A DNA stretch of 7,547 nt, taken from IMG/VR virus record IMGVR_UViG_2585427710_000007, positions 1-7,547 of that record; one strand, written 5' to 3'. Below are positions 1-7,547 of the stretch, piece after piece; position 1 is the stretch's first letter; every line of letters begins with the position of its first letter. The translations under genes and the position numbers were made by a program. The notes below the pieces were generated by a model. That model made no database searches and was not told the origin of the DNA. It was given only the letters and a program-made list of their open reading frames with translations. Origin of the DNA: a virus (taxonomy: Duplodnaviria > Heunggongvirae > Uroviricota > Caudoviricetes).

Positions 1-164
1 ACAAATACTGCTCGGCGATCTATCAGCCAACGCCCACGAATTTTTTGTGGTCTTGGAACGATGTATCCTAGTTTTCCGTATTTCACCAGGGTAGTGTTTG
101 TTATTGGGAGACTGAACCGTTTTGGTTTCCACTCATCGAGCGTTATCAGGTACTGTTCGCTCAT
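1..164 (-). CDS. Hypothetical protein, N-terminal 54 codons only (gene runs off the left edge)
   Basis: Minus-strand ATG at 164..162 with GGAG 9 nt upstream (rev-comp of 171-174). Open frame to position 1, reading MSEQYLITLDEWKPKRFSLPITNTTLVKYGKLGYIVPRPQKIRGRWLIDRRAVF. Absent from the ORF track, apparently for length. Does not look like RecT. Confidence 0.4.
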   Translation of the reverse strand, partial: MSEQYLITLDEWKPKRFSLPITNTTLVKYGKLGYIVPRPQKIRGRWLIDRRAVF

Positions 165-225
165 GGCTATCACTCCGGAACGCGCCAGTTGCAGAATACC
201 AACGACAACTGGCGACGGTTGAACA

Positions 226-2628
226 TTAAAAATCAGCCTGACTCGGGATCAGTTTTTGCCAGATAGCTGAAACGTATTTTGCCTGGTAACGCGCATCGTG
301 CAGGGCATTATGGCGCTCACCCTCAAATGTGATGACACTTCGAGCATCGAAATCCATCACCAGTCCCATAGCAACCATCGTTCTTACATCGCGATCATTG
401 GTGTAACGCCATGGGCAGGGGATCCCCTGCCGTTCATATGAACGGCGTAAAATTACGTTGTCAAAGTTGGCTCCATTTCCCCAGACCTGAACAAAAAATT
501 CACCGGAGTTTTCGTCGATAAATTCCCGTAATTGCAACAGTGCGTCATCCAACGGGATTTCATCGGTCAGAATGGCTGATTGTGCTTCCCGTGACTGTTT
601 CAGCCACCACTTAATGGTGTCCCGATCGATGACTCCGCCCGCGGTTTCCAGATCGATAGTTTTGCTGAATTCTGGCCCCATCTCTCCGGTTGCCGGATCA
701 AAAAACTTACCGGCCAGAGCGTTTATTGGCGCATCAGGATTTTTGCCCATTGTTTCAAGGTCAATCATCAGATGGTGCCACAACCTGCTGGTGGATGTGC
801 TTTCGTGATGACCGTTCACCTTAATTAAGGGATTTGCTGTCTCGCCTGTTTCATTATTGCCATTGGCATGTTGATCGCCTTCGGTGCACTCCTTGTTCGG
901 GTATACGGCACTCTCCATTTCCTCTGGATCTTTCTCCCGGGCTTCATCCTGGCTTTCTTCGTTGAATGTTTCCTGGTATGTTGCGTCGCCCATTACCGCG
1001 CCACAGTCAGGACAGTTGCCGTCGCCGGTCTGACCGCAGGCGGTGCAGACTTTTTCCGGTTCTTGTTGCTCTTCTGGTTCAGGCTGTTTCGTTTCCGGCT
1101 CGTTTTGTTCCGATTCGTGCTGGTTCTGGTTCACAGAATCGCGGGTTTCAATCCCCTTCACCCATTTCGGATCATTCGGGTCGCTAATCCCTTCAACAAA
1201 TTCTCCGTGAGAAGCAGCCAGTAATTTATCTGCATCGACAGGATTTTTGGGGGGAATGTTTTTCCTGGCTTCATGGAGTTCTGCACGCAGTTTCTGATAT
1301 TTCGCATCAACAGAATTTATCTGTGGCTGAGCATCCATCGACTGCGTGTCCTGATTATGTTCAGTTGTATCCGGTTCCACTGCTTCAGTCGTTGCCTGTT
1401 CATCTGCCATTGCGCCAGTTGGCTGCGGTTTTTCTTCATCATCCTGTTTTCCTTCTTTTGTTACACGCTGCGGCATTGGAGCAGAGGAGCGACCGCAGGC
1501 AATATCCACGATTTCTGGATCAGGGTTGGCATGGTCGGTTTCGGTCAGTACTTTGTTCAGATATTCGGTAACACGGTGGGGAGTAGCCTCGATACCAATT
1601 GGTGCTTCTTTCACGGACGCAACCACTATCGCGCGGGAATAATCCAGGTGACCAGGCATGGCGATGAATTTGTCACGAAAAACAGAAAAGGGCGGCTTAT
1701 TCTCTGAAACGATTTCTTCAATGCGTTTGGCGTGTGCCGGATGTGGATTGTAAATATCGATGTCCATTGAACGGGCCAGAACGCCAGCGGCAACGTCACG
1801 TTCCACTGACGCATCATCGTGGACAAAACCTTCACCGCGATCGGTAAGAATTCCTCCGCCAGCATTAGCGCCGGATGGCGTGCGGCTGATGCGTAAAACA
1901 CGATTTCCTTTCATCCACTCTTTTGTCAGCAGACCTCGATCGGTATAGTCAGCGTCCAGGTATGCTTCGAAAAAAGCAGTCATTAACCCCAGATTGGAAT
2001 TAACGGGATTAGGGAAAACTTTGTCTGTGTCGCGTACCAGTTTGTGAAGGTCGCGAATCTCCAGCGGGTCGAGCAGCTTTGTGTTGTGGGAAATAGCCAG
2101 GGCAGTAACAGCAGGCAGTTCTTCAGCTCGTGCGATATGTAATGCCTGAAGTTCTTCCCGTGAAACGTGCGTTACCGGTTTTTCGCTGCCATGTTGCGCA
2201 AGCCAGCGAATGGGCAGTTCCTGACCGGAAATCGGCAGGAGCATATTATCCTCAATCTCAGCCATGTCTTCGCCATTGACGTTGGTATTGTCAGTGCTGG
2301 CAGGTTTGTCCTGAACTGAGGGGGAAGGCGCTATAAATATCATTGTGATGCCATCTTCTCCGCCTTTTTCATAGCGGTTGCAGAATTCGGTATCAAACAC
2401 ACCTTCAGGCGGCAGGTCATTAACAATAGGCAAATTCACGCGAACAGGTTTTTTGAAATCCTCTTCGTCAAATCCAGCATCGTCCATTGCGACAACACCC
2501 CGTGATATTGCAACCGATAATTTTTTTGCTGTGCGCCAGTAAAAACCGCCTTTAATCCCAAGGCGTTTTCTGACTTTGTCATTTTTGGCTTCGTAATACA
2601 GTGCAATTTCTTCTTTATCAGTGCTCAT
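226..2628 (-). CDS. RecE-like (exodeoxyribonuclease VIII-like) protein, 800 aa, with a C-terminal DnaQ-like DEDDh 3'-5' exonuclease domain
   Basis: Track ORF with GAGG 7 nt upstream of the ATG at 2628. N-terminal and central regions resemble my recollection of Rac RecE (for example [27 protein letters not shown]). There is an acidic low-complexity linker and a C-x2-C-x7-C-x2-C zinc-ribbon-like motif ([16 protein letters not shown]). The C-terminus carries Exo I (MIDLETMG), Exo II ([10 protein letters not shown]) and Exo III ([13 protein letters not shown]) motifs. Confidence 0.85.
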
Positions 2629-2720
2629 TGATAAACCTCATAACTATTTTAAGGTTGTACGAATCCCTGCCATTGCTGGCATACTTAATCAACGGGTATG
2701 GCGTTAATATGGCTGGCGGG

Positions 2721-2909
2721 TTATCCAGCCGGTATTTCGTTATTCAGGTACAGCGATACTTTTTTTAACGGGAGACATTCGCCAGAAATTTTTTGCTCGT
2801 CTCTTGCACGGAGGCATGATTCTTTACTGGCATAAATTCCGGTAATCACTTTCTGTGGCTCACCTGTTATCAGAAAAACCGTCATCATCAGTGTAAACGC
2901 TGAACTCAC
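2721..2909 (-). CDS. ydfD: YdfD-like small protein with a hydrophobic N-terminus (lysis-type peptide)
   Basis: GTG start at 2909 with GGAGG 6 nt upstream; GTGA start/stop overlap with dicB. The N-terminus SSAFTLMMTVFLITG is hydrophobic. Sits immediately downstream of dicB, as ydfD does in Qin. Family assignment is from memory and synteny. Confidence 0.6.
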   Translation of the reverse strand: MSSAFTLMMTVFLITGEPQKVITGIYASKESCLRARDEQKISGECLPLKKVSLYLNNEIPAG

Positions 2910-3094
2910 TGCTGCCCTCCGAAAATGCCAAGTTCAAGAAGGGCAATTCTGGAGAGTATGGAATTATCATTGAGAAGATAAGGCTCATATTTTCTCATCC
3001 TGATGGCGTCCTCAGTAAACTCCCGGTTACTGAGCAGAATACCAATATTAAAACACCCTTCAGACGTATTAACGTTTGGTAGTGACGTTTCCAT
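2906..3094 (-). CDS. dicB: Cell division inhibitor DicB homolog (62 aa)
   Basis: ATG at 3094 with GAGGA about 7 nt upstream. The product METSLPNVNTSEGCFNIGILLSNREFTEDAIRMRKYEP... matches my recollection of the DicB N-terminal half (LPNVNTSEGCF, FTEDAI). It lies about 175 nt downstream of a DicF-like element, as in Qin. Confidence 0.8.
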   Translation of the reverse strand: METSLPNVNTSEGCFNIGILLSNREFTEDAIRMRKYEPYLLNDNSILSRIALLELGIFGGQQ

Positions 3095-3271
3095 TATCGC
3101 GTCCTCAACAATGAATTTTGTGATGTGGTGCCTGGTGCCTCCAGGTGACGTTAACCAGTTAACAATTAACGCCGGATTGTTAGTTGATGTCTGTTACGCC
3201 AGTAAAAGACCGCTTGTTTTAACTGTTCCGCGTGCGCTTAGCCGCATTCACCGCATCACAAAATACACTTT

Positions 3272-3311
3272 AAAAATGGCGGATATCCATTTCCGCCGAA
3301 TCACCAGAAAA
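3272..3311 (-). ncRNA. dicF: DicF-like small RNA candidate (shortened variant) ending in an intrinsic terminator
   Basis: Minus-strand sequence UUUUCUGGUGAUUCG-GGCGGA-aauggaua-UCCGCC-AUUUUU. The 5' motif UUUCUGGUGA matches the start of K-12 DicF as I recall it. A 6-bp GC stem (3292-3297 / 3278-3283) with an 8-nt loop is followed by a U-run (3272-3277). Position upstream of dicB matches Qin. The 5' end is not defined. Confidence 0.5.
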
Positions 3312-3652
3312 GTGATAACAGAGGTTGTTGTGGCGGTGTTGTCACTCAGGCGTATGGTCAACCTGACAACCCGGTGCATTTTCTGGAGTAATGGAGGAAG
3401 CCCCAGCCATACTTACCGCCGCGCCATTTCGCGGATTGCCACAACCGGAAGCGCACGATCGAATTAAATTTAACGACGACCTGTACAGAGAGACTAACTT
3501 CGCCGTGCGCTTTCGTGTTATGCCCTGACTTTTCAGGGATATGTTCTTTCAGTAAACTGTCAGTGCCGGATTCTTATCCGTGTCCGGCGCACGACCACAC
3601 GTGACAGCGTGTTGGTCTCCATTTTTAACCCAGAACCTCTATGGAGGATAAA

Positions 3653-3955
3653 ATGCACTCTAAATCAAATCGATATTATGTTCATGTGCAGTTATTTGAA
3701 GCAACAATGGAACAGGAGAAAAAGTTCGAGACTCTGATGCCAAATTTTAAATACTCCAGGATGATTAATGAAGGTGACGTTGAATATAAATTGTTGCCAG
3801 GGGCATACGTTATTCAGTCAACGCTCAATTCGAATCAAATACTTGAACAAACCTTTTCTGTTGCTAATTCAGTTGGTGTTAATGCTCACATTTTTGTTTG
3901 CCCTTATGATGAAAGTGCAACCCTTTTGCCTTGTGCTGATTTTGGCACTTACTAA
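3653..3955 (+). CDS. Hypothetical 100-aa protein; AT-rich moron in reverse orientation within the leftward operon
   Basis: GGAGG at 3643-3647, 5 nt before the ATG at 3653 (the track start at 3641 is less likely). The ORF is visibly AT-rich compared with the flanking sequence. No transmembrane segment or recognisable motif. Product MHSKSNRYYVHVQLFEATMEQEKKFETLMPNFKYSRMINEGDVEYKLLPGAYVIQ... Confidence 0.6.
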   Translation: MHSKSNRYYVHVQLFEATMEQEKKFETLMPNFKYSRMINEGDVEYKLLPGAYVIQSTLNSNQILEQTFSVANSVGVNAHIFVCPYDESATLLPCADFGTY

Positions 3956-4259
3956 CTAAATTTAATTTATGTTCAAGTTCGGCTATTTGCATACGTAGTG
4001 CTTTAACCATTGTTTCATGATAAATCTCACTCACTCCACCTGGGTGTGGGGTGAATTTAGGTGAATAATCTTTGTTTTCAGAACTCAGCTTCTCTTCGTA
4101 CAGCTTGATAAAGGCATTACGCACATTATGGGATATATTGTCGATGGTTTCTTTTTCTACGGTACTCAGGTCAAGAGTCGCCAGTTGAGAACGAACTATA
4201 TTCGCTGCCATTTCCTGGAATGGTACTGGTAAATCTTTAAATTCCATCGTCAACCTCAT
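3879..4259 (-). CDS. Hypothetical 126-aa protein at the ydfB/ydfC position of a dicB-type operon
   Basis: The ATG at 4259..4257 overlaps the ydfA-like stop (ATGA), suggesting translational coupling. An alternative ATG at 4247 has GAGG 6-8 nt upstream. The last 25 codons or so are read antisense to the 3' end of the plus-strand gene 3653-3955, giving a His/Lys-rich tail. Confidence 0.6.
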   Translation of the reverse strand: MRLTMEFKDLPVPFQEMAANIVRSQLATLDLSTVEKETIDNISHNVRNAFIKLYEEKLSSENKDYSPKFTPHPGGVSEIYHETMVKALRMQIAELEHKLNLVSKCQNQHKAKGLHFHHKGKQKCEH

Positions 4260-4411
4260 CAGTCAGTGTTTCTGGCTAACCAGCGACGCGCGCCAGCTTC
4301 AGTTTTAAACGTTTTGCTTCTGGTATACGTCATCGCGGTAAACGTGCCGTCCAGGTTGGAGAATACTCCGCATACCAGAGATTCGTTGTTGCCAAGATTG
4401 AGCGTATCCAT
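4259..4411 (-). CDS. ydfA: YdfA/YdaF-like small protein (DUF1391-type), 50 aa
   Basis: ATG at 4411 with GAGG about 6 nt upstream. Product MDTLNLGNNESLVCGVFSNLDGTFTAMTYTRSKTFKTEAGARRWLARNTD matches my recollection of Qin YdfA. First gene of the leftward operon. Below the ORF-track length cutoff. Confidence 0.65.
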   Translation of the reverse strand: MDTLNLGNNESLVCGVFSNLDGTFTAMTYTRSKTFKTEAGARRWLARNTD

Positions 4412-4640
4412 GTTGACCTCATTTACCCTTAACGCCGGGTCGCGGAACTAAAAACCTGCTGCGCTGTTATACAAAGTGTTCCCGCCGTCATGTTCATACG
4501 CCTCGGGCTGGCTACTTAACCCCTGACCACTGCCGGGTAACTCGAAGTATTGCCCTGCGTTCTGTTGAATGGGGTGGGTTGGTGAAACAAGGATGCACTT
4601 TTAAAGTTATTATGTCAACACTTATAAAGTTAGGTTGTGG

Positions 4641-4669
4641 GCAACAAAAACCGCCTCGAGATGAGACGG
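4641..4669 (-). terminator. Rho-independent terminator of the paaR2-paaA2-parE2-like operon
   Basis: On the minus-strand RNA, a 7-bp GC-rich stem (4663-4669 paired with 4651-4657, one G-U pair) with a 5-nt loop, followed by UUUUUGUUG (4641-4650), starting 12 nt after the parE stop. Confidence 0.6.
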
Positions 4670-4682
4670 CCCTGTGAAAGGG

Positions 4683-4970
4683 TTAGTTCTGCTTGGGGAA
4701 TTGGCGTCTGGCGTGTACTACACTCACGATCTCAATGCTTAAAGTGGCTACACGGTAAAGAATTATATAGTTAGGGTGAGCTACAATCTCACGCAAGCCA
4801 GGTACTCTGTCGCTTGGTGGGTATAAATACGGGTGTTCGGATAACGGCAGCACACACCCCCTTAATCGCTGCCATAAGCGTTCTGCCGCATCTATGTCGA
4901 AACGAGCAATATAACTAGTTATATCATCTAGGTCGGTATCTGCGCTTTCAAGCCATAACACGGGTAACAT
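4683..4970 (-). CDS. parE2: ParE-family toxin (ParE2-like) of a three-component TA system
   Basis: 95-aa ORF, MLPVLWLESADTDLDDITSYIARFDIDAAERLWQRL...HARRQFP, typical of the RelE/ParE fold and matching my recollection of E. coli O157 ParE2. Starts 3 nt after the paaA2 stop. Paralog 1 versus 2 cannot be settled by eye. Confidence 0.85.
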   Translation of the reverse strand: MLPVLWLESADTDLDDITSYIARFDIDAAERLWQRLRGCVLPLSEHPYLYPPSDRVPGLREIVAHPNYIILYRVATLSIEIVSVVHARRQFPKQN

Positions 4971-4973
4971 TTA

Positions 4974-5162
4974 CTACTTACTCCGTTCCTTGCGCATTTT
5001 AGCAAAGCGTTCTGCCATTCTGCGCTCAACCTCGTCATGGGGAATTGCTGGGCGCGGATTTGCAAGGCTCGCTGCTACTTTCGCACGCAGCCATTCGTTG
5101 TAACTGTTTTCTTGTTCAATGGTTTCGAACTCAGAAACCATTGGTGAAAGGGCCGTATTCAT
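4974..5162 (-). CDS. paaA2: PaaA2-like antitoxin (62 aa)
   Basis: Internal ATG at 5162 with GGAGG 6 nt upstream. Product MNTALSPMVSEFETIEQENSYNEWLRAKVAASLANPRPAIPHDEVERRMAERFAKMRKERSK, close to what I recall of PaaA2. The 83-aa track ORF from 5225 is rejected as an overextension into paaR. Confidence 0.85.
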   Translation of the reverse strand: MNTALSPMVSEFETIEQENSYNEWLRAKVAASLANPRPAIPHDEVERRMAERFAKMRKERSK

Positions 5163-5191
5163 GGCACACCTCCGTCTGTGTATGGTGGTCA

Positions 5192-5599
5192 TTATGCTCG
5201 ATGCCCTTTCCGGGCAGCGAGCCATCTTTCAATTGTGCGCTCCATTAACTCTTTTTTGTCTTTCATCTCCTGAAGCATTTGTCCCTGTTCTTCCTCTGGG
5301 AATGCACCAAATGTCTGAAGTAGCTCTCTTTGCTTCGGACCTATTTTCATTGTGTCAGGTACCACAATCTGTTCGTCCTCACTTGGTGGCAACATAAACC
5401 AATATGGAGGGAATCCTGTTACTTCAGAAAGTTTATCAAGATTAGCCATTGATGGGCTTGTGATGCCATGAACCCACTTTTGGACCGATTGTTGGGCAAC
5501 ACCTATTCTGCGGGCTAGTTCTGCTTGCTTAAGCCCTGTTTTTTCCAGCACCAGTTTTATCCGGTACGTGGTTATTTCAAGAGTGGTCATTCGCTTCAT
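5192..5599 (-). CDS. paaR2: PaaR2-like HTH (XRE/CI-like) transcriptional regulator, in the cI position
   Basis: 135-aa ORF with a helix-turn-helix region (LKQAELARRIGVAQQSVQKWVHG). Divergent from the Cro-like gene and first gene of the TA operon. The ATG at 5599 has no clear SD, so it may be leaderless; Met4 is an alternative start. Confidence 0.8.
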   Translation of the reverse strand: MKRMTTLEITTYRIKLVLEKTGLKQAELARRIGVAQQSVQKWVHGITSPSMANLDKLSEVTGFPPYWFMLPPSEDEQIVVPDTMKIGPKQRELLQTFGAFPEEEQGQMLQEMKDKKELMERTIERWLAARKGHRA

Positions 5600-5706
5600 G
5601 CATTCATTTTACACAAAAAAAGTGTAGCCAGCACAATCAGCTTGAAAGTGTTGATAGTGTAACTTTTAGAGTGTATAAGTGGTGTCGATTGATTGGAGTT
5701 AGCGAT
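5600..5706. promoter_or_regulatory. Divergent promoter/operator region of the immunity switch
   Basis: Rightward sigma70 candidate: -35 TTGATA (5651-5656), 17-bp spacer, -10 TATAAG (5674-5679). Leftward candidate -10 TAAAAT (rev-comp of 5606-5611), which would start transcription at or next to the paaR ATG. Palindrome TACAC-N7-GTGTA at 5610-5626 and repeated AGTGT motifs at 5647, 5656 and 5670. Confidence 0.5.
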
Positions 5707-5985
5707 ATGCATAAATGTTTAAAAAATAAAATTCGCCAAATAGGGTTATCCCAAGCGGGTGTTGCTCGCTTGATTGGGTTGCCACAGCAGGTTGTATGTC
5801 GATGGGTTAATGGGCAACAGGTCCCTGCATCAAGGGTTTTACAACTATGTGAGATTATGGCGTGGACTGTCACCCCCCACGAGCTCCGACCAGATATTTA
5901 CCCTAACCCAACCGATGGCCTGCCTTGTGGACGTAAGAGTACAGCGAATGAATTACTGGCGGTGAACAATGAAAATCACACCTGA
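5707..5985 (+). CDS. ydaS: Cro-like HTH protein of the YdaS family
   Basis: ATG at 5707 with GGAG 8 nt upstream (5695-5698); the track GTG start at 5671 is less likely. HTH region IGLSQAGVARLIGLPQQVVCRWVNG. Divergent from the repressor and overlaps the ydaT-like start by 17 nt. Confidence 0.7.
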   Translation: MHKCLKNKIRQIGLSQAGVARLIGLPQQVVCRWVNGQQVPASRVLQLCEIMAWTVTPHELRPDIYPNPTDGLPCGRKSTANELLAVNNENHT

Positions 5986-6490
5986 ACAGGTTTGCGAGGC
6001 TCTGGATGCCTGGGTATGCAGACCAGGAATGACGCAGGAGCAGGCGACGATATTAATTACTGAAGCCTTCTGGGCTCTACAGGAACGCCCGAACATCGAT
6101 GTTCAGCGTGTCACGCTTGATGATGGCGGGGTTGATCAGCGTGCGCTTGGCGTTAACCGGGTGAAGATATTCGAACGCTGGAAGGCTATCGACACCAGGG
6201 ATAAGCGTGAAAAATTCACGGCGCTGATTCCGGCAATTATGGAGGCTATCCGGATTAGTGATTTCAGGTTGTACCGCGAAATTACTGACGGAAAAAGCAT
6301 TACGTACATGATTGCCGGGTTAAACAAAGAATATGGAGATGTGGTGGAGTCCGGGCTGCTTTTTGCAGATCCAGCTGTTGTGGAACGTGAGACAGACGAG
6401 CTTATAGAAAAAGCAATCGCTTTCAAGCGTGCCTATCGTCACCAGTACCAACAAAAAGCCGGATGGAATTATGAGCCTTCTTTTTGCTGA
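5969..6490 (+). CDS. ydaT: YdaT-family protein (functional CII analogue in Rac-type prophages), 173 aa
   Basis: Position immediately after the Cro-like gene with overlapping start. The motif REKFTALIPAIMEA resembles my recollection of Rac YdaT. Confidence 0.65.
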   Translation: MKITPEQVCEALDAWVCRPGMTQEQATILITEAFWALQERPNIDVQRVTLDDGGVDQRALGVNRVKIFERWKAIDTRDKREKFTALIPAIMEAIRISDFRLYREITDGKSITYMIAGLNKEYGDVVESGLLFADPAVVERETDELIEKAIAFKRAYRHQYQQKAGWNYEPSFC

Positions 6491-7436
6491 ACGCCCGCTG
6501 GTTATAAACACACAGCTGGCGATGAAGATTGGTTTAAACGAAGCCATTGTGTTGCAGCAACTGCATTACTGGTTGAGGGATACCAGTTCCGGCATGGAAT
6601 GTGATGGCGTTCGCTGGATTTACAACACAACGGAACAATGGCTGGAACAGTTTCCGTTCTGGTCAGAGTCAACGTTAAAGCGTGCGTTTGCAAGTCTGAA
6701 AGCGCTGGGGCTTTTGCGTAGCGAAAAGCTCAATAAATCGAAGCGTGATATGACTAATTTTTACACAATTAACTACGATAGCGCGCTTTTAGATGATGGC
6801 AAAGTGAACGAATCCATCGGGTCAAAATGCGCCACTCCATCAGGTCAAAATGACACGATGGAAGAGGTCAAAATGAAACGTTCCATTGGTTCAAAACGGC
6901 CCAATGTCATCAGGTCAAAATGGCCCGATGATCCTACAGAGAATACAACAGAGAATACAACAGAGAATAAAAAACTCTCTTGTCCGGACGCTTCGCAACC
7001 GGACGAGTTGACGGCTGAACAGGCGTTTTTAACCCGCCATCCTGATGCAGTTGTGTTCAGCGTGAAAAAACGCCAGTGGGGAACCCGGGAGGATTTGACA
7101 TGTGCGCAGTGGATCTGGGGGCGGGTTGTAAACCTGTACGAACAGGCTGCCAGTGACGATGGTGAGATCACGCGACCGAAAGAGCCCAACTGGACGGCGT
7201 GGGCCAATGACGTGCGCACAATGCGGATGCTGGATGGAAGAAGTCACAGACAAATTTGCGAAATGTTCAGCCGGGCACAACGGGATCCGTTCTGGATAAA
7301 AAACATCAAGAGCCCGGAAAAACTCCGTGAGAAATGGGATGAACTGGTTATTCGACTGTGGCGTGGTCCCGCGCAGCGTTGCGTGAATCATATTTCTGAA
7401 CCGGATACCGAAATTCCGCCGGGTTTCAGGGGGTAG
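6471..7436 (+). CDS. Phage replication initiator / replisome organizer (lambda O-like) with an internal origin
   Basis: ATG at 6471 preferred over the track start at 6429, which would overlap ydaT by 62 nt. The N-terminal region (LVINTQLAMKIGLNEAIVLQQLHYWL...) is typical of replisome organizer N-domains. Iterons lie inside the gene. Followed 6 nt later by the next gene. Confidence 0.7.
   Translation: MSLLFAERPLVINTQLAMKIGLNEAIVLQQLHYWLRDTSSGMECDGVRWIYNTTEQWLEQFPFWSESTLKRAFASLKALGLLRSEKLNKSKRDMTNFYTINYDSALLDDGKVNESIGSKCATPSGQNDTMEEVKMKRSIGSKRPNVIRSKWPDDPTENTTENTTENKKLSCPDASQPDELTAEQAFLTRHPDAVVFSVKKRQWGTREDLTCAQWIWGRVVNLYEQAASDDGEITRPKEPNWTAWANDVRTMRMLDGRSHRQICEMFSRAQRDPFWIKNIKSPEKLREKWDELVIRLWRGPAQRCVNHISEPDTEIPPGFRG
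6814..6925. repeat. Candidate replication origin: five iterons with about 23-bp periodicity
   Basis: Core GGTCAAAATG at 6820, 6843, 6866 and 6913, plus a degenerate copy GGTTCAAAACG at 6888. Spacing is 23, 23, 22-23 and 24-25 bp, often preceded by CATCA. This is the arrangement of ori-lambda inside the O gene. Confidence 0.7.
6936..6971. repeat. Three tandem 12-bp repeats (ACAGAGAATACA) immediately after the iterons
   Basis: ACAGAGAATACA at 6936-6947 and 6948-6959, then ACAGAGAATAAA at 6960-6971. They encode TENTTENTTENK within the initiator and form an A-rich stretch next to the iterons. Confidence 0.7.
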
Positions 7437-7442
7437 CGCATC

Positions 7443-7547
7443 ATGAAAAACATTACGTCAGGTGGTGTTCTGGCAAGAGTCAGCAGATTTGTGCCGCAGG
7501 ATGCAATCCCTCCGTACCGTACGGTGACGGAGTGGCGGGAATGGCAG
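7443..7547 (+). CDS. Start of a downstream replication-module gene (possibly P/DnaC-like helicase loader), partial
   Basis: ATG at 7443, 6 nt after the initiator stop, with a G-rich SD-like stretch upstream. Open to the window end, reading MKNITSGGVLARVSRFVPQDAIPPYRTVTEWREWQ. The function is inferred from position only. Confidence 0.4.
   Translation, partial: MKNITSGGVLARVSRFVPQDAIPPYRTVTEWREWQ

Follow-up and report, generated by a model that had tools for sequence, protein, structure and literature searches.

A divergent YmfI-family gene with a predicted GhoS-like fold in an exchangeable cassette at the sieB position of a lambdoid prophage

We analysed a small reverse-oriented gene in a 7,547-nt stretch of viral DNA (Caudoviricetes; IMG/VR record IMGVR_UViG_2585427710_000007, positions 1 to 7,547; hereafter the window), which matches identically a prophage found beside potC in Escherichia coli O22:H8 RM10809-3 (NZ_CP023165, L001) and in several other Shiga toxin-producing E. 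coli (STEC) strains. The open reading frame (ORF) occupies positions 3641-3955 of the plus strand, with a likely start at ATG 3653 that gives 100 aa and a TAA stop at 3953-3955. It is almost certainly a working protein-coding gene from a divergent branch of the YmfI family, carried on an AT-rich cassette of ~470 bp in the sieB slot of a Qin/Rac-like lambdoid prophage. Modelling indicates that its product very probably takes the ferredoxin-like fold of the antitoxin GhoS. The explanation that we favour overall, in which YmfI-family identity, the GhoS-like fold and an RNA-acting mechanism are taken together, stands in our judgement a little short of an even chance.

Profile searches placed the protein in the YmfI family. 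PHROG 8894 matched with an E value of 6e-34 (profile positions 2-93 of 94), NCBIfam NF051477 ('YmfI family phage protein') with 109.6 bits (E 8.1e-32, positions 2-89 of 89), and BLASTP against YmfI of the K-12 element e14 (b1143) gave 56% identity over 91 residues (E 2e-37). True YmfI proteins score 160-164 bits with NF051477 and the window protein does not reach its curated cutoff of 140, indicating a divergent subfamily member rather than an equivalog. Its genomic context is that of the family, on the opposite strand within the early-left operon and convergent with a YmfJ-type gene, and the residues conserved among its relatives include H11, E20/Q21, Y52, S56 and C83. The gene thus belongs to a family already named and functionally uncharacterised, of which e14 ymfI is the type member, and a sequence-only reading of the window, which had picked it out as the best candidate for something undescribed, was wrong in that respect. 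The same reading had recognised no motif in the product; this holds at the sequence level but not at the level of the predicted fold. Pfam gave nothing significant for the window protein and 15 family members. The literature that we found lists ymfI only in expression data, namely SOS and e14 gene lists and a convergent ymfI-ymfJ excludon (PMC12288877, PMC11002266, PMC9742991).

The likeness to e14 ymfI covers the shared PHROG, the orientation against the early-left operon and a convergent 3' overlap with a gene ending in a YH[ED]TMVKALR module; the overlap of the K-12 ymfI(+)/ymfJ(-) pair, at 63 nt, mirrors the 77 nt of the window. The two loci differ in other respects. The window protein lacks the C-terminal extension of 15-20 residues of e14-type YmfI and has an N-terminal extension of 5 residues, its leader is without the conserved sieB-type element of the e14 ymfI leader, the N-terminal domain of its partner is unrelated to that of e14 YmfJ, and the backbone is Qin/Rac-like, with DicF/dicB, and not that of e14.

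Conservation marks the frame as protein coding. Protein searches recovered homologues at 94%, 80%, 57-59%, 40% and 34% identity with the frame intact throughout. A larger set, drawn from Escherichia, Salmonella, Enterobacter, Scandinavium and Edwardsiella and sharing 46-59% identity, carries the label 'YmfI family phage protein' in its sources, and the homologues include an in-frame indel of 3 nt. For distant pairs, the proportion of nonsynonymous differences (pN) was 0.23-0.49 against a saturated proportion of synonymous differences (pS) of ~0.8. The ORF was intact in the four alleles read (window, L003, L009 and L010). Among 5426 complete E. coli genomes, 65 carry the 320-nt region, chromosomally in every case; 64 of these are at least 95% identical to the window, and a length change, a single-base deletion, occurs in one only.

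The ORF also overlaps the 3' end of the minus-strand partner gene by 77 nt (3879-3955), a feature that the sequence-only reading had not mentioned. In an O157-type allele with 96.6% identity (L009), the partner ends at residue 101, 21 codons earlier, and the overlap shrinks to 14 nt; in the 80% allele (L003), the partner tail is different and frame-shifted. As the minus-strand tail is not conserved while the plus frame is kept, the plus-strand frame is the constrained one. The RefSeq annotation pipeline (PGAP) omits the gene in the window-identical genomes that we checked, NZ_CP023165 and NZ_CP028381 (L002), evidently because the longer minus-strand ORF overlaps it by 77 nt, and annotates it as WP_000555741.1 in O157:H7-type strains, which carry the allele with the 14-nt overlap; in practical terms, the gene is missing from the RefSeq annotation of the identical STEC genomes checked. 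An open frame arisen by chance opposite genuine minus-strand coding sequence, or opposite non-coding sequence, would account for the overlap and for the missing annotation, but conservation to 34% identity, profile matches at E 6e-34 and 8e-32, a confident fold model, a pN far below pS and the lack of conservation in the overlapped tail already refute this reading, which we regard as vanishingly improbable.

The gene lies on a cassette that has been exchanged between prophages. Its GC content is 0.363 (0.317 at third codon positions), compared with 0.488 and 0.472 in the left and right 500-nt flanks and 0.474 for the entire window, and the lowest-GC stretch of 303 nt in the 7.5 kb begins at 3667, within the ORF. 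All neighbours, from the cI-like repressor leftwards to the exonuclease, are on the minus strand, and the ORF sits between the 122/126-aa partner ORF (3879-4247/4259) and a truncated DicF-like element (~3272-3310, minus strand). Aligned with K-12 Qin, homology breaks at 3593/3594 and resumes at ydfA/DUF1391; Qin has ydfB-ydfC between these points and no reverse gene. The right boundary is approximate (4060-4105) and is based on the partner, which diverges from its homologue in phage PPompW at roughly residues 47-64. Part of the wider 1.1-kb surrounding stretch was found in 4184 of the 5426 genomes, as against 65 for the gene region, related prophages vary in the cassette that they carry, and PPompW has another reverse gene in this place. 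The sequence-only reading had described an AT-rich gene with a near-ideal Shine-Dalgarno sequence (GGAGGA can be read directly in the sequence), transcribed against the operon, placed next to the DicF-like element where Qin has no such gene, and probably acquired horizontally; each of these points was borne out.

This position is equivalent to that of the superinfection exclusion gene sieB. Every homologue examined runs against the early-left genes, on the other strand, with a CI-like repressor nearby in most loci, usually one or two genes away, and kil-type genes downstream in the operon (DicB in the window, KilR in L015 and L017; DicB or KilR adjoining in several loci); lambda sieB, likewise, is a plus-strand gene between ral and N inside the leftward pL operon. 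The leader of e14-type ymfI, ~70 nt long, is far better conserved than the coding sequence and reads tGCCTGTCTTTTcACCACTTCAGGCTCGGTGGTATGCTGGaGTTCTCACACAGCCAGCAAGGAAA, with the ATG a few bases later. In K-12 e14 (L011 5425-5497) it comprises the core TGCCTGTCTTTTmACCACwTCAGGCTCGGTGGT, followed by TATGCTGG.AGTTCTCACACAGCCAGCAAGGAAA and the ATG; within it are an extended -10-like TGgTATGCT and a pair of short inverted repeats that overlap each other. Its first 33 nt match lambda (NC_001416 34396-34428; L189 1301-1333), 54-86 nt upstream of sieB, and a 24-nt core recurs in at least 120 IMG/VR contigs (loci L070-L188), where the small cargo genes that follow it are of at least 20 different kinds. 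Among their products are YmfI, a 76-aa zinc-ribbon protein, a 64-aa protein, Lar-like zinc-finger proteins, a 163-aa protein and a family of 94-97 aa, and some are weakly similar to the Lar restriction-alleviation zinc finger. Thus, the slot that the YmfI family occupies is that of sieB, and this slot acts as a hot spot for cassettes.

Other prophages illustrate what the slot can hold. Phage PPompW_EH2246 (L020 2501-3119) carries in it a 77-aa reverse gene (PHROG 10348) with a convergent overlap of 23 nt, and Rac-SA53 (L190 1571-2071) carries the rac10 reverse gene (rac10/rac11) with a convergent overlap of 39 nt. The minus-strand gene of PPompW has an N-terminal domain in common with the window partner but differs from it in the C-terminal half, which shows the cargo gene and the partner C terminus being swapped together. 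A divergent gene often begins 20-25 nt upstream of the e14-type leader.

SieB is a membrane-associated protein of 184 aa, unlike the 100-aa, soluble-looking product of the window gene, and BLASTP against lambda SieB gave only E 0.34 over 15 residues, that is, no homology. The likeness to sieB of lambda and P22 is one of slot and orientation, as a plus-strand gene in the leftward pL operon near repressor-proximal genes, and relatives of the window gene share the 33-nt upstream element with lambda sieB, whereas the window allele is without it. sieB is described as a prophage-expressed exclusion gene in PMC12197685 and PMC10883804. Given the equivalent slot, the idea of the sequence-only reading that the gene is an exclusion or defence moron is positionally reasonable.

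The leader of the window allele is related to the sieB-type leader at its ends only. With 59 nt compared with 60 nt for the e14/lambda type, it has the same first bases, ACCAC, and keeps the ACCAC...TGGT ends alone; the sieB-type upstream element had no match in the window within 3 mismatches. Instead, it carries an inverted repeat of 8-9 bp, ACCACACG (3594-3601) and CGTGTTGGT (3608-3616), around the loop TGACAG, and the leader with this repeat is conserved in the window, L003 and L009 despite ~20% protein divergence between the window and L003. The 16-nt segment 3597-3612 (ACACG TGACAG CGTGT) is reverse-complemented in the 80% allele (L003/L004), which inverts the loop and keeps the stem. CTCCAT (3617-3622) could pair with ATGGAG (3641-3646), which includes Shine-Dalgarno bases, in a 6-bp stem with an 18-nt loop; such a stem, conserved in three close alleles, might mask the ribosome-binding site. 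No LexA box was found near the window gene.

The partner gene is a chimera with an N-terminal domain of the type found in Shiga toxin (Stx) phages and PPompW, a YmfJ-type C-terminal module and a non-conserved tail. PHROG 6937/1363 match its residues 1-70 only, and PHROG 12693 (the YmfJ family) matches residues 75-100 of the 126-aa form; tblastn against phages covered residues 1-64 alone, and the N-terminal family occurs in Stx and PPompW phages without YmfI. Residues 65-95 align with the C terminus of K-12 YmfJ at 47% identity over 34 aa (BLASTP). We surveyed 189 loci for the exact motif YH[ED]TM[VI]KAL and found it in 79, all of which adjoin a YmfI gene (73 identified by pattern and 6 by inspection). 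The 73 pattern-found YmfI genes lie on the strand opposite to the motif in every case, at a spacing of 348-357 nt, and the 6 inspected loci include the Edwardsiella-type ones with a YmfI variant ('IYVHVQL') that the pattern missed. Loci whose slot carries other cargo lack the exact motif, and most YmfI loci without it have near-variants such as YHDTMIKCLK or FHETMVKALR. The motif is joined to at least 4 unrelated N-terminal halves and its codons vary synonymously, indicating a protein-level module that is co-inherited with YmfI. We had also considered the YmfJ-C region as an RNA target rather than a peptide, which the synonymous variation of the motif codons rules out.

The two genes recall an excludon. 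On the basis of RNA-seq coverage, PMC12288877 counts K-12 ymfI-ymfJ among convergent excludons, and during the SOS response ymfJ is induced late and ymfI weakly (PMC11002266). In the window, the convergent genes overlap at their 3' ends with no terminator found between them, a likeness seen here at the gene level.

Structure prediction linked the family to GhoS, the antitoxin endoribonuclease of the type V GhoT/GhoS system, which cleaves toxin mRNA and is structurally related to Cas2 (PMC4010927). An AlphaFold2 model built from a 15-sequence alignment (predicted local distance difference test, pLDDT, 83.9; predicted template modelling score, pTM, 0.74) has the topology beta-alpha-beta-beta-beta-alpha-beta-alpha and is ferredoxin-like, and GhoS was the sole Foldseek match at E <= 1e-3 (E 2.8e-5, template modelling score, TM, 0.71), in agreement with a GhoS fold. 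Foldseek against viral models (BFVD) gave no match, and a profile search of PDB sequences returned noise only. At the sequence level, 2 of 15 family members gave sub-threshold matches to Pfam GhoS (E 0.041), and the YmfI profile against the GhoS sequence alone gave no signal in hhalign. With 95% probability, hhalign connects YmfI with a second family of slot cargo (MAKFTV/MTRFIV, 94-97 aa), and one of the 4 members of that second family matches Pfam GhoS below threshold (E 0.0018); we tried this family as a bridge to GhoS and rejected it, as its own hhalign comparison with GhoS was negative.

We conclude that the protein is built on a scaffold like that of GhoS, but its membership of the GhoS family is not demonstrated, and whether it shares the catalysis of GhoS is uncertain. 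Compared with GhoS (YjdK; PDB 2LLZ; PF11080), identity in the structural alignment is 12-13%, and in K-12 ghoT follows ghoS on the same strand, whereas the window gene is prophage-borne and its downstream neighbour convergent. Ferredoxin-fold nucleases of the Cas2/VapD type gave far weaker structural scores than GhoS and the gene has no CRISPR context; moreover, E16 of the window protein is not invariant in the family (Val in P0006, Gln in P0023). A hydrophobic 63-aa ORF in an alternative frame (3768-3959, plus strand) was considered as a GhoT-like toxin and rejected, that frame being interrupted by a stop codon in L010. The frameshifted allele P0004 reads into this ORF, which is most likely a by-product of AT-rich sequence.

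In the explanation that we favour, the gene, like sieB, would be expressed from the prophage and its product would act on RNA by binding or cutting specific transcripts; for this mechanistic part, we see a tentative case, clearly below an even chance. The protein would be made in lysogens, as SieB is, and its likely targets would be either the prophage's own early-left transcript, which encodes the toxic DicF/DicB/YdfD-like products as well as the YmfJ-type partner, or the transcripts of superinfecting phages. The convergent overlap with the partner would make an excludon, through which strong pL transcription after induction would shut the gene off, and the conserved C-terminal module of the partner may provide a second, protein-level link between the two genes. 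In its fullest form, the proposal would make YmfI and YmfJ-C a previously unrecognised two-component system of the sieB slot in enterobacterial lambdoid prophages, a GhoS-fold protein acting on specific RNAs (either to counter toxic early-left products, like a type V antitoxin, or to bring about exclusion) under the control of the excludon and the partner peptide, within a hot spot where one leader drives at least 20 cargo genes; this we consider doubtful.

Several results weigh against the favoured explanation. Pfam GhoS (PF11080, gathering threshold 21 bits) did not match the window protein at E <= 10, and hhalign of the YmfI profile against the GhoS profile gave a probability of 0.5%. The residue reported to matter most for GhoS activity, Arg28 (PMC4010927), appears to fall on Glu26 of the window protein, a placement that is approximate, as it relies on the hydrophobic register of helix 1 and on chained hhalign with a non-significant GhoS step; Glu is the majority residue at this site in the family, with a mostly conserved Lys24 two residues before. 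No gene for a GhoT-like membrane toxin lies downstream in the window, nor any conserved hydrophobic ORF on the same strand. The left half of the sieB-type element is replaced in the window by Qin-like sequence, and a sigma-70-type consensus scan found no usable promoter (the only site overlaps the start codon) and no terminator for the window allele. PADLOC gave no match. Between close alleles, dN/dS (the ratio of nonsynonymous to synonymous rates) was 0.4-0.7, pointing to relaxed constraint or fast evolution, and at least one allele is frameshifted (P0004). Finally, searches of 50,697 phage records found no YmfI homologue (tblastn and blastn of the window gene, tblastn of e14 YmfI), and so the family has no link to a phage known to be viable.

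Alternatively, YmfI could be a non-catalytic protein-binding partner of the YmfJ-C module, the two forming a convergent toxin-antitoxin-like or regulator/anti-regulator pair for which the GhoS-like fold would be a mere scaffold. The strict co-occurrence of YmfJ-C with YmfI across at least 4 unrelated N-terminal contexts, the protein-level constraint on the motif, the apparent absence of the catalytic Arg28 and the acidic character of the window protein (pI 5.2) are consistent with such a pair, whereas the two most divergent YmfI lineages misfit (no partner was called in L015/L016, and the partner in L017 is without the motif) and co-inheritance could just mirror the placement of recombination breakpoints; we give it a small but serious chance. 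We consider it unlikely that the product is instead a prophage-expressed effector of exclusion, abortive infection or anti-defence, directed at an incoming phage or a host defence system, that works other than via RNA and independently of the prophage's own transcripts. Such an effector would fit the position of sieB, the many alternative small cargo genes behind one leader, some of them Lar-like, in the manner of accessory or defence hot spots, and the fast evolution of close alleles, but PADLOC found no match and there is no homology to SieB.

Transcription itself could matter more than the protein, with plus-strand transcription holding back leaky pL transcription into DicF/dicB/ydfD in the manner of an excludon or by an antisense effect, and the protein secondary. 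The 77-nt convergent overlap, the lack of a detectable terminator after the ORF, the excludon call for K-12 ymfI-ymfJ (PMC12288877) and the toxicity of the downstream DicB, DicF and DUF1482 lysis-type protein, as given by the K-12 annotation of dicB, dicF and ydfD, speak for this idea; an antisense role, however, needs neither the long-range purifying selection on the protein, seen with saturated synonymous sites, nor the strong conserved Shine-Dalgarno sequence, and we hold it improbable. Equally improbable in our view is a silent remnant, that is, a cassette recombined into a Qin-like backbone without a promoter, its ORF intact and not expressed in the window prophage. The loss of the left half of the sieB-type leader at the 3593/3594 breakpoint, the missing sigma-70 promoter, the PGAP omission and the one frameshifted allele suggest such a remnant. 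Against it stand the intact ORF in four alleles, the near-complete integrity of the gene among its 65 carriers, the ideal Shine-Dalgarno sequence, the fact that the window, L003 and L009 alleles all keep the 59-nt leader and the inverted repeat in it, and a weak promoter-like site, TTTTCA-17-TAAACT, at ~3530-3558 upstream of the leader, which could give read-through.

In the literature searched, we found no account of the structural link between YmfI and GhoS, of the strict linkage of YmfI to YmfJ-C or of the cassette architecture of the sieB slot, and nothing relevant on the leader sequence. ymfI still counts among the uncharacterised genes of E. coli K-12; its predicted fold, module linkage and slot make the family experimentally approachable. 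They open the hypotheses of RNA-level control of toxic early prophage genes or of phage exclusion, in a slot beside the cell-division toxins DicB, DicF and KilR.

Table 1 Features of the ymfI-like cassette and of neighbouring genes in window coordinates
Feature	Position	Strand	Details
YmfI-like coding sequence	3653..3955	+	100 aa, 11.5 kDa, isoelectric point (pI) 5.2; ORF list, profiles, selection, fold model
Shine-Dalgarno GGAGGA	3643..3648	+	4-5 nt before ATG 3653; sequence reading; kept in L003 and L009 alleles
Cassette leader	3594..3652	+	59 nt; starts exactly at the Qin breakpoint
AT-rich exchangeable cassette	3594..4060	.	GC 0.377; leader, ymfI-like gene and 3' part of partner
Convergent partner gene	3879..4247	-	122 aa from the PGAP start; 126 aa from first ATG 4259
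YmfJ-type C-terminal module KFTPHPGGVSEIYHETMVKALRMQIAELEHKLNL	3957..4061	-	Partner residues 63-97; BLASTP, 7-protein alignment, motif survey
Overlap of convergent frames	3879..3955	.	77 nt; on the minus strand a non-conserved read-through tail, residues 102-122 and stop
cI-like helix-turn-helix repressor	5192-5599	-	Window neighbour, rightmost listed
RelB antitoxin	4974-5162	-	RelB/RelE pair; 5225 from first ATG
RelE/ParE toxin	4683-4970	-	RelB/RelE pair
DUF1391 (YdfA-like) gene	4259-4411	-	
DicB gene	2906-3094	-	
DUF1482 (YdfD-like) gene		-	Left of DicB in gene order
800-aa exonuclease	226-2628	-	

Elsewhere in the operon, the RelB/RelE pair lies between the cI-like repressor and the DUF1391 gene. 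It is missing from otherwise 99%-identical prophages (for example, NZ_CP028381), whose match to the window stops near 4449, and is a second presence/absence cassette within the same operon.

The DicF-like element on the minus strand (3272-3310) has an internal deletion of 17 nt relative to K-12 DicF, retains UUUCUGGUGA at its 5' end and closes with a short hairpin terminator (stem 3278-3297) and a T run. Rfam gave no DicF match and nothing reaching a gathering threshold in the window, and no match in the e14 ymfI region; sub-threshold minus-strand matches over the DicF-like stretch were to AgvB (3272-3341, 15 bits) and STnc100 (3062-3279, 33 bits compared with a gathering threshold of 47). The Qin-like spacer between this element and the cassette holds a 45-aa ORF (3391-3528, plus strand) that is the hypothetical protein WP_001378876.1 in L002. 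The conserved stretch CCGCGTGCGC(T/A)NAGCCGCATTCAC occurs in the window at 3222-3256 (plus strand), in L011 at ~5340-5385 and in L015 at ~2300-2340. In e14-type loci, ~70-100 nt separate it from the ymfI gene that follows, whereas its distance from the window gene is ~400 nt, as it is placed there to the left of the DicF-like element, inside the STnc100-like region that is common with Qin.

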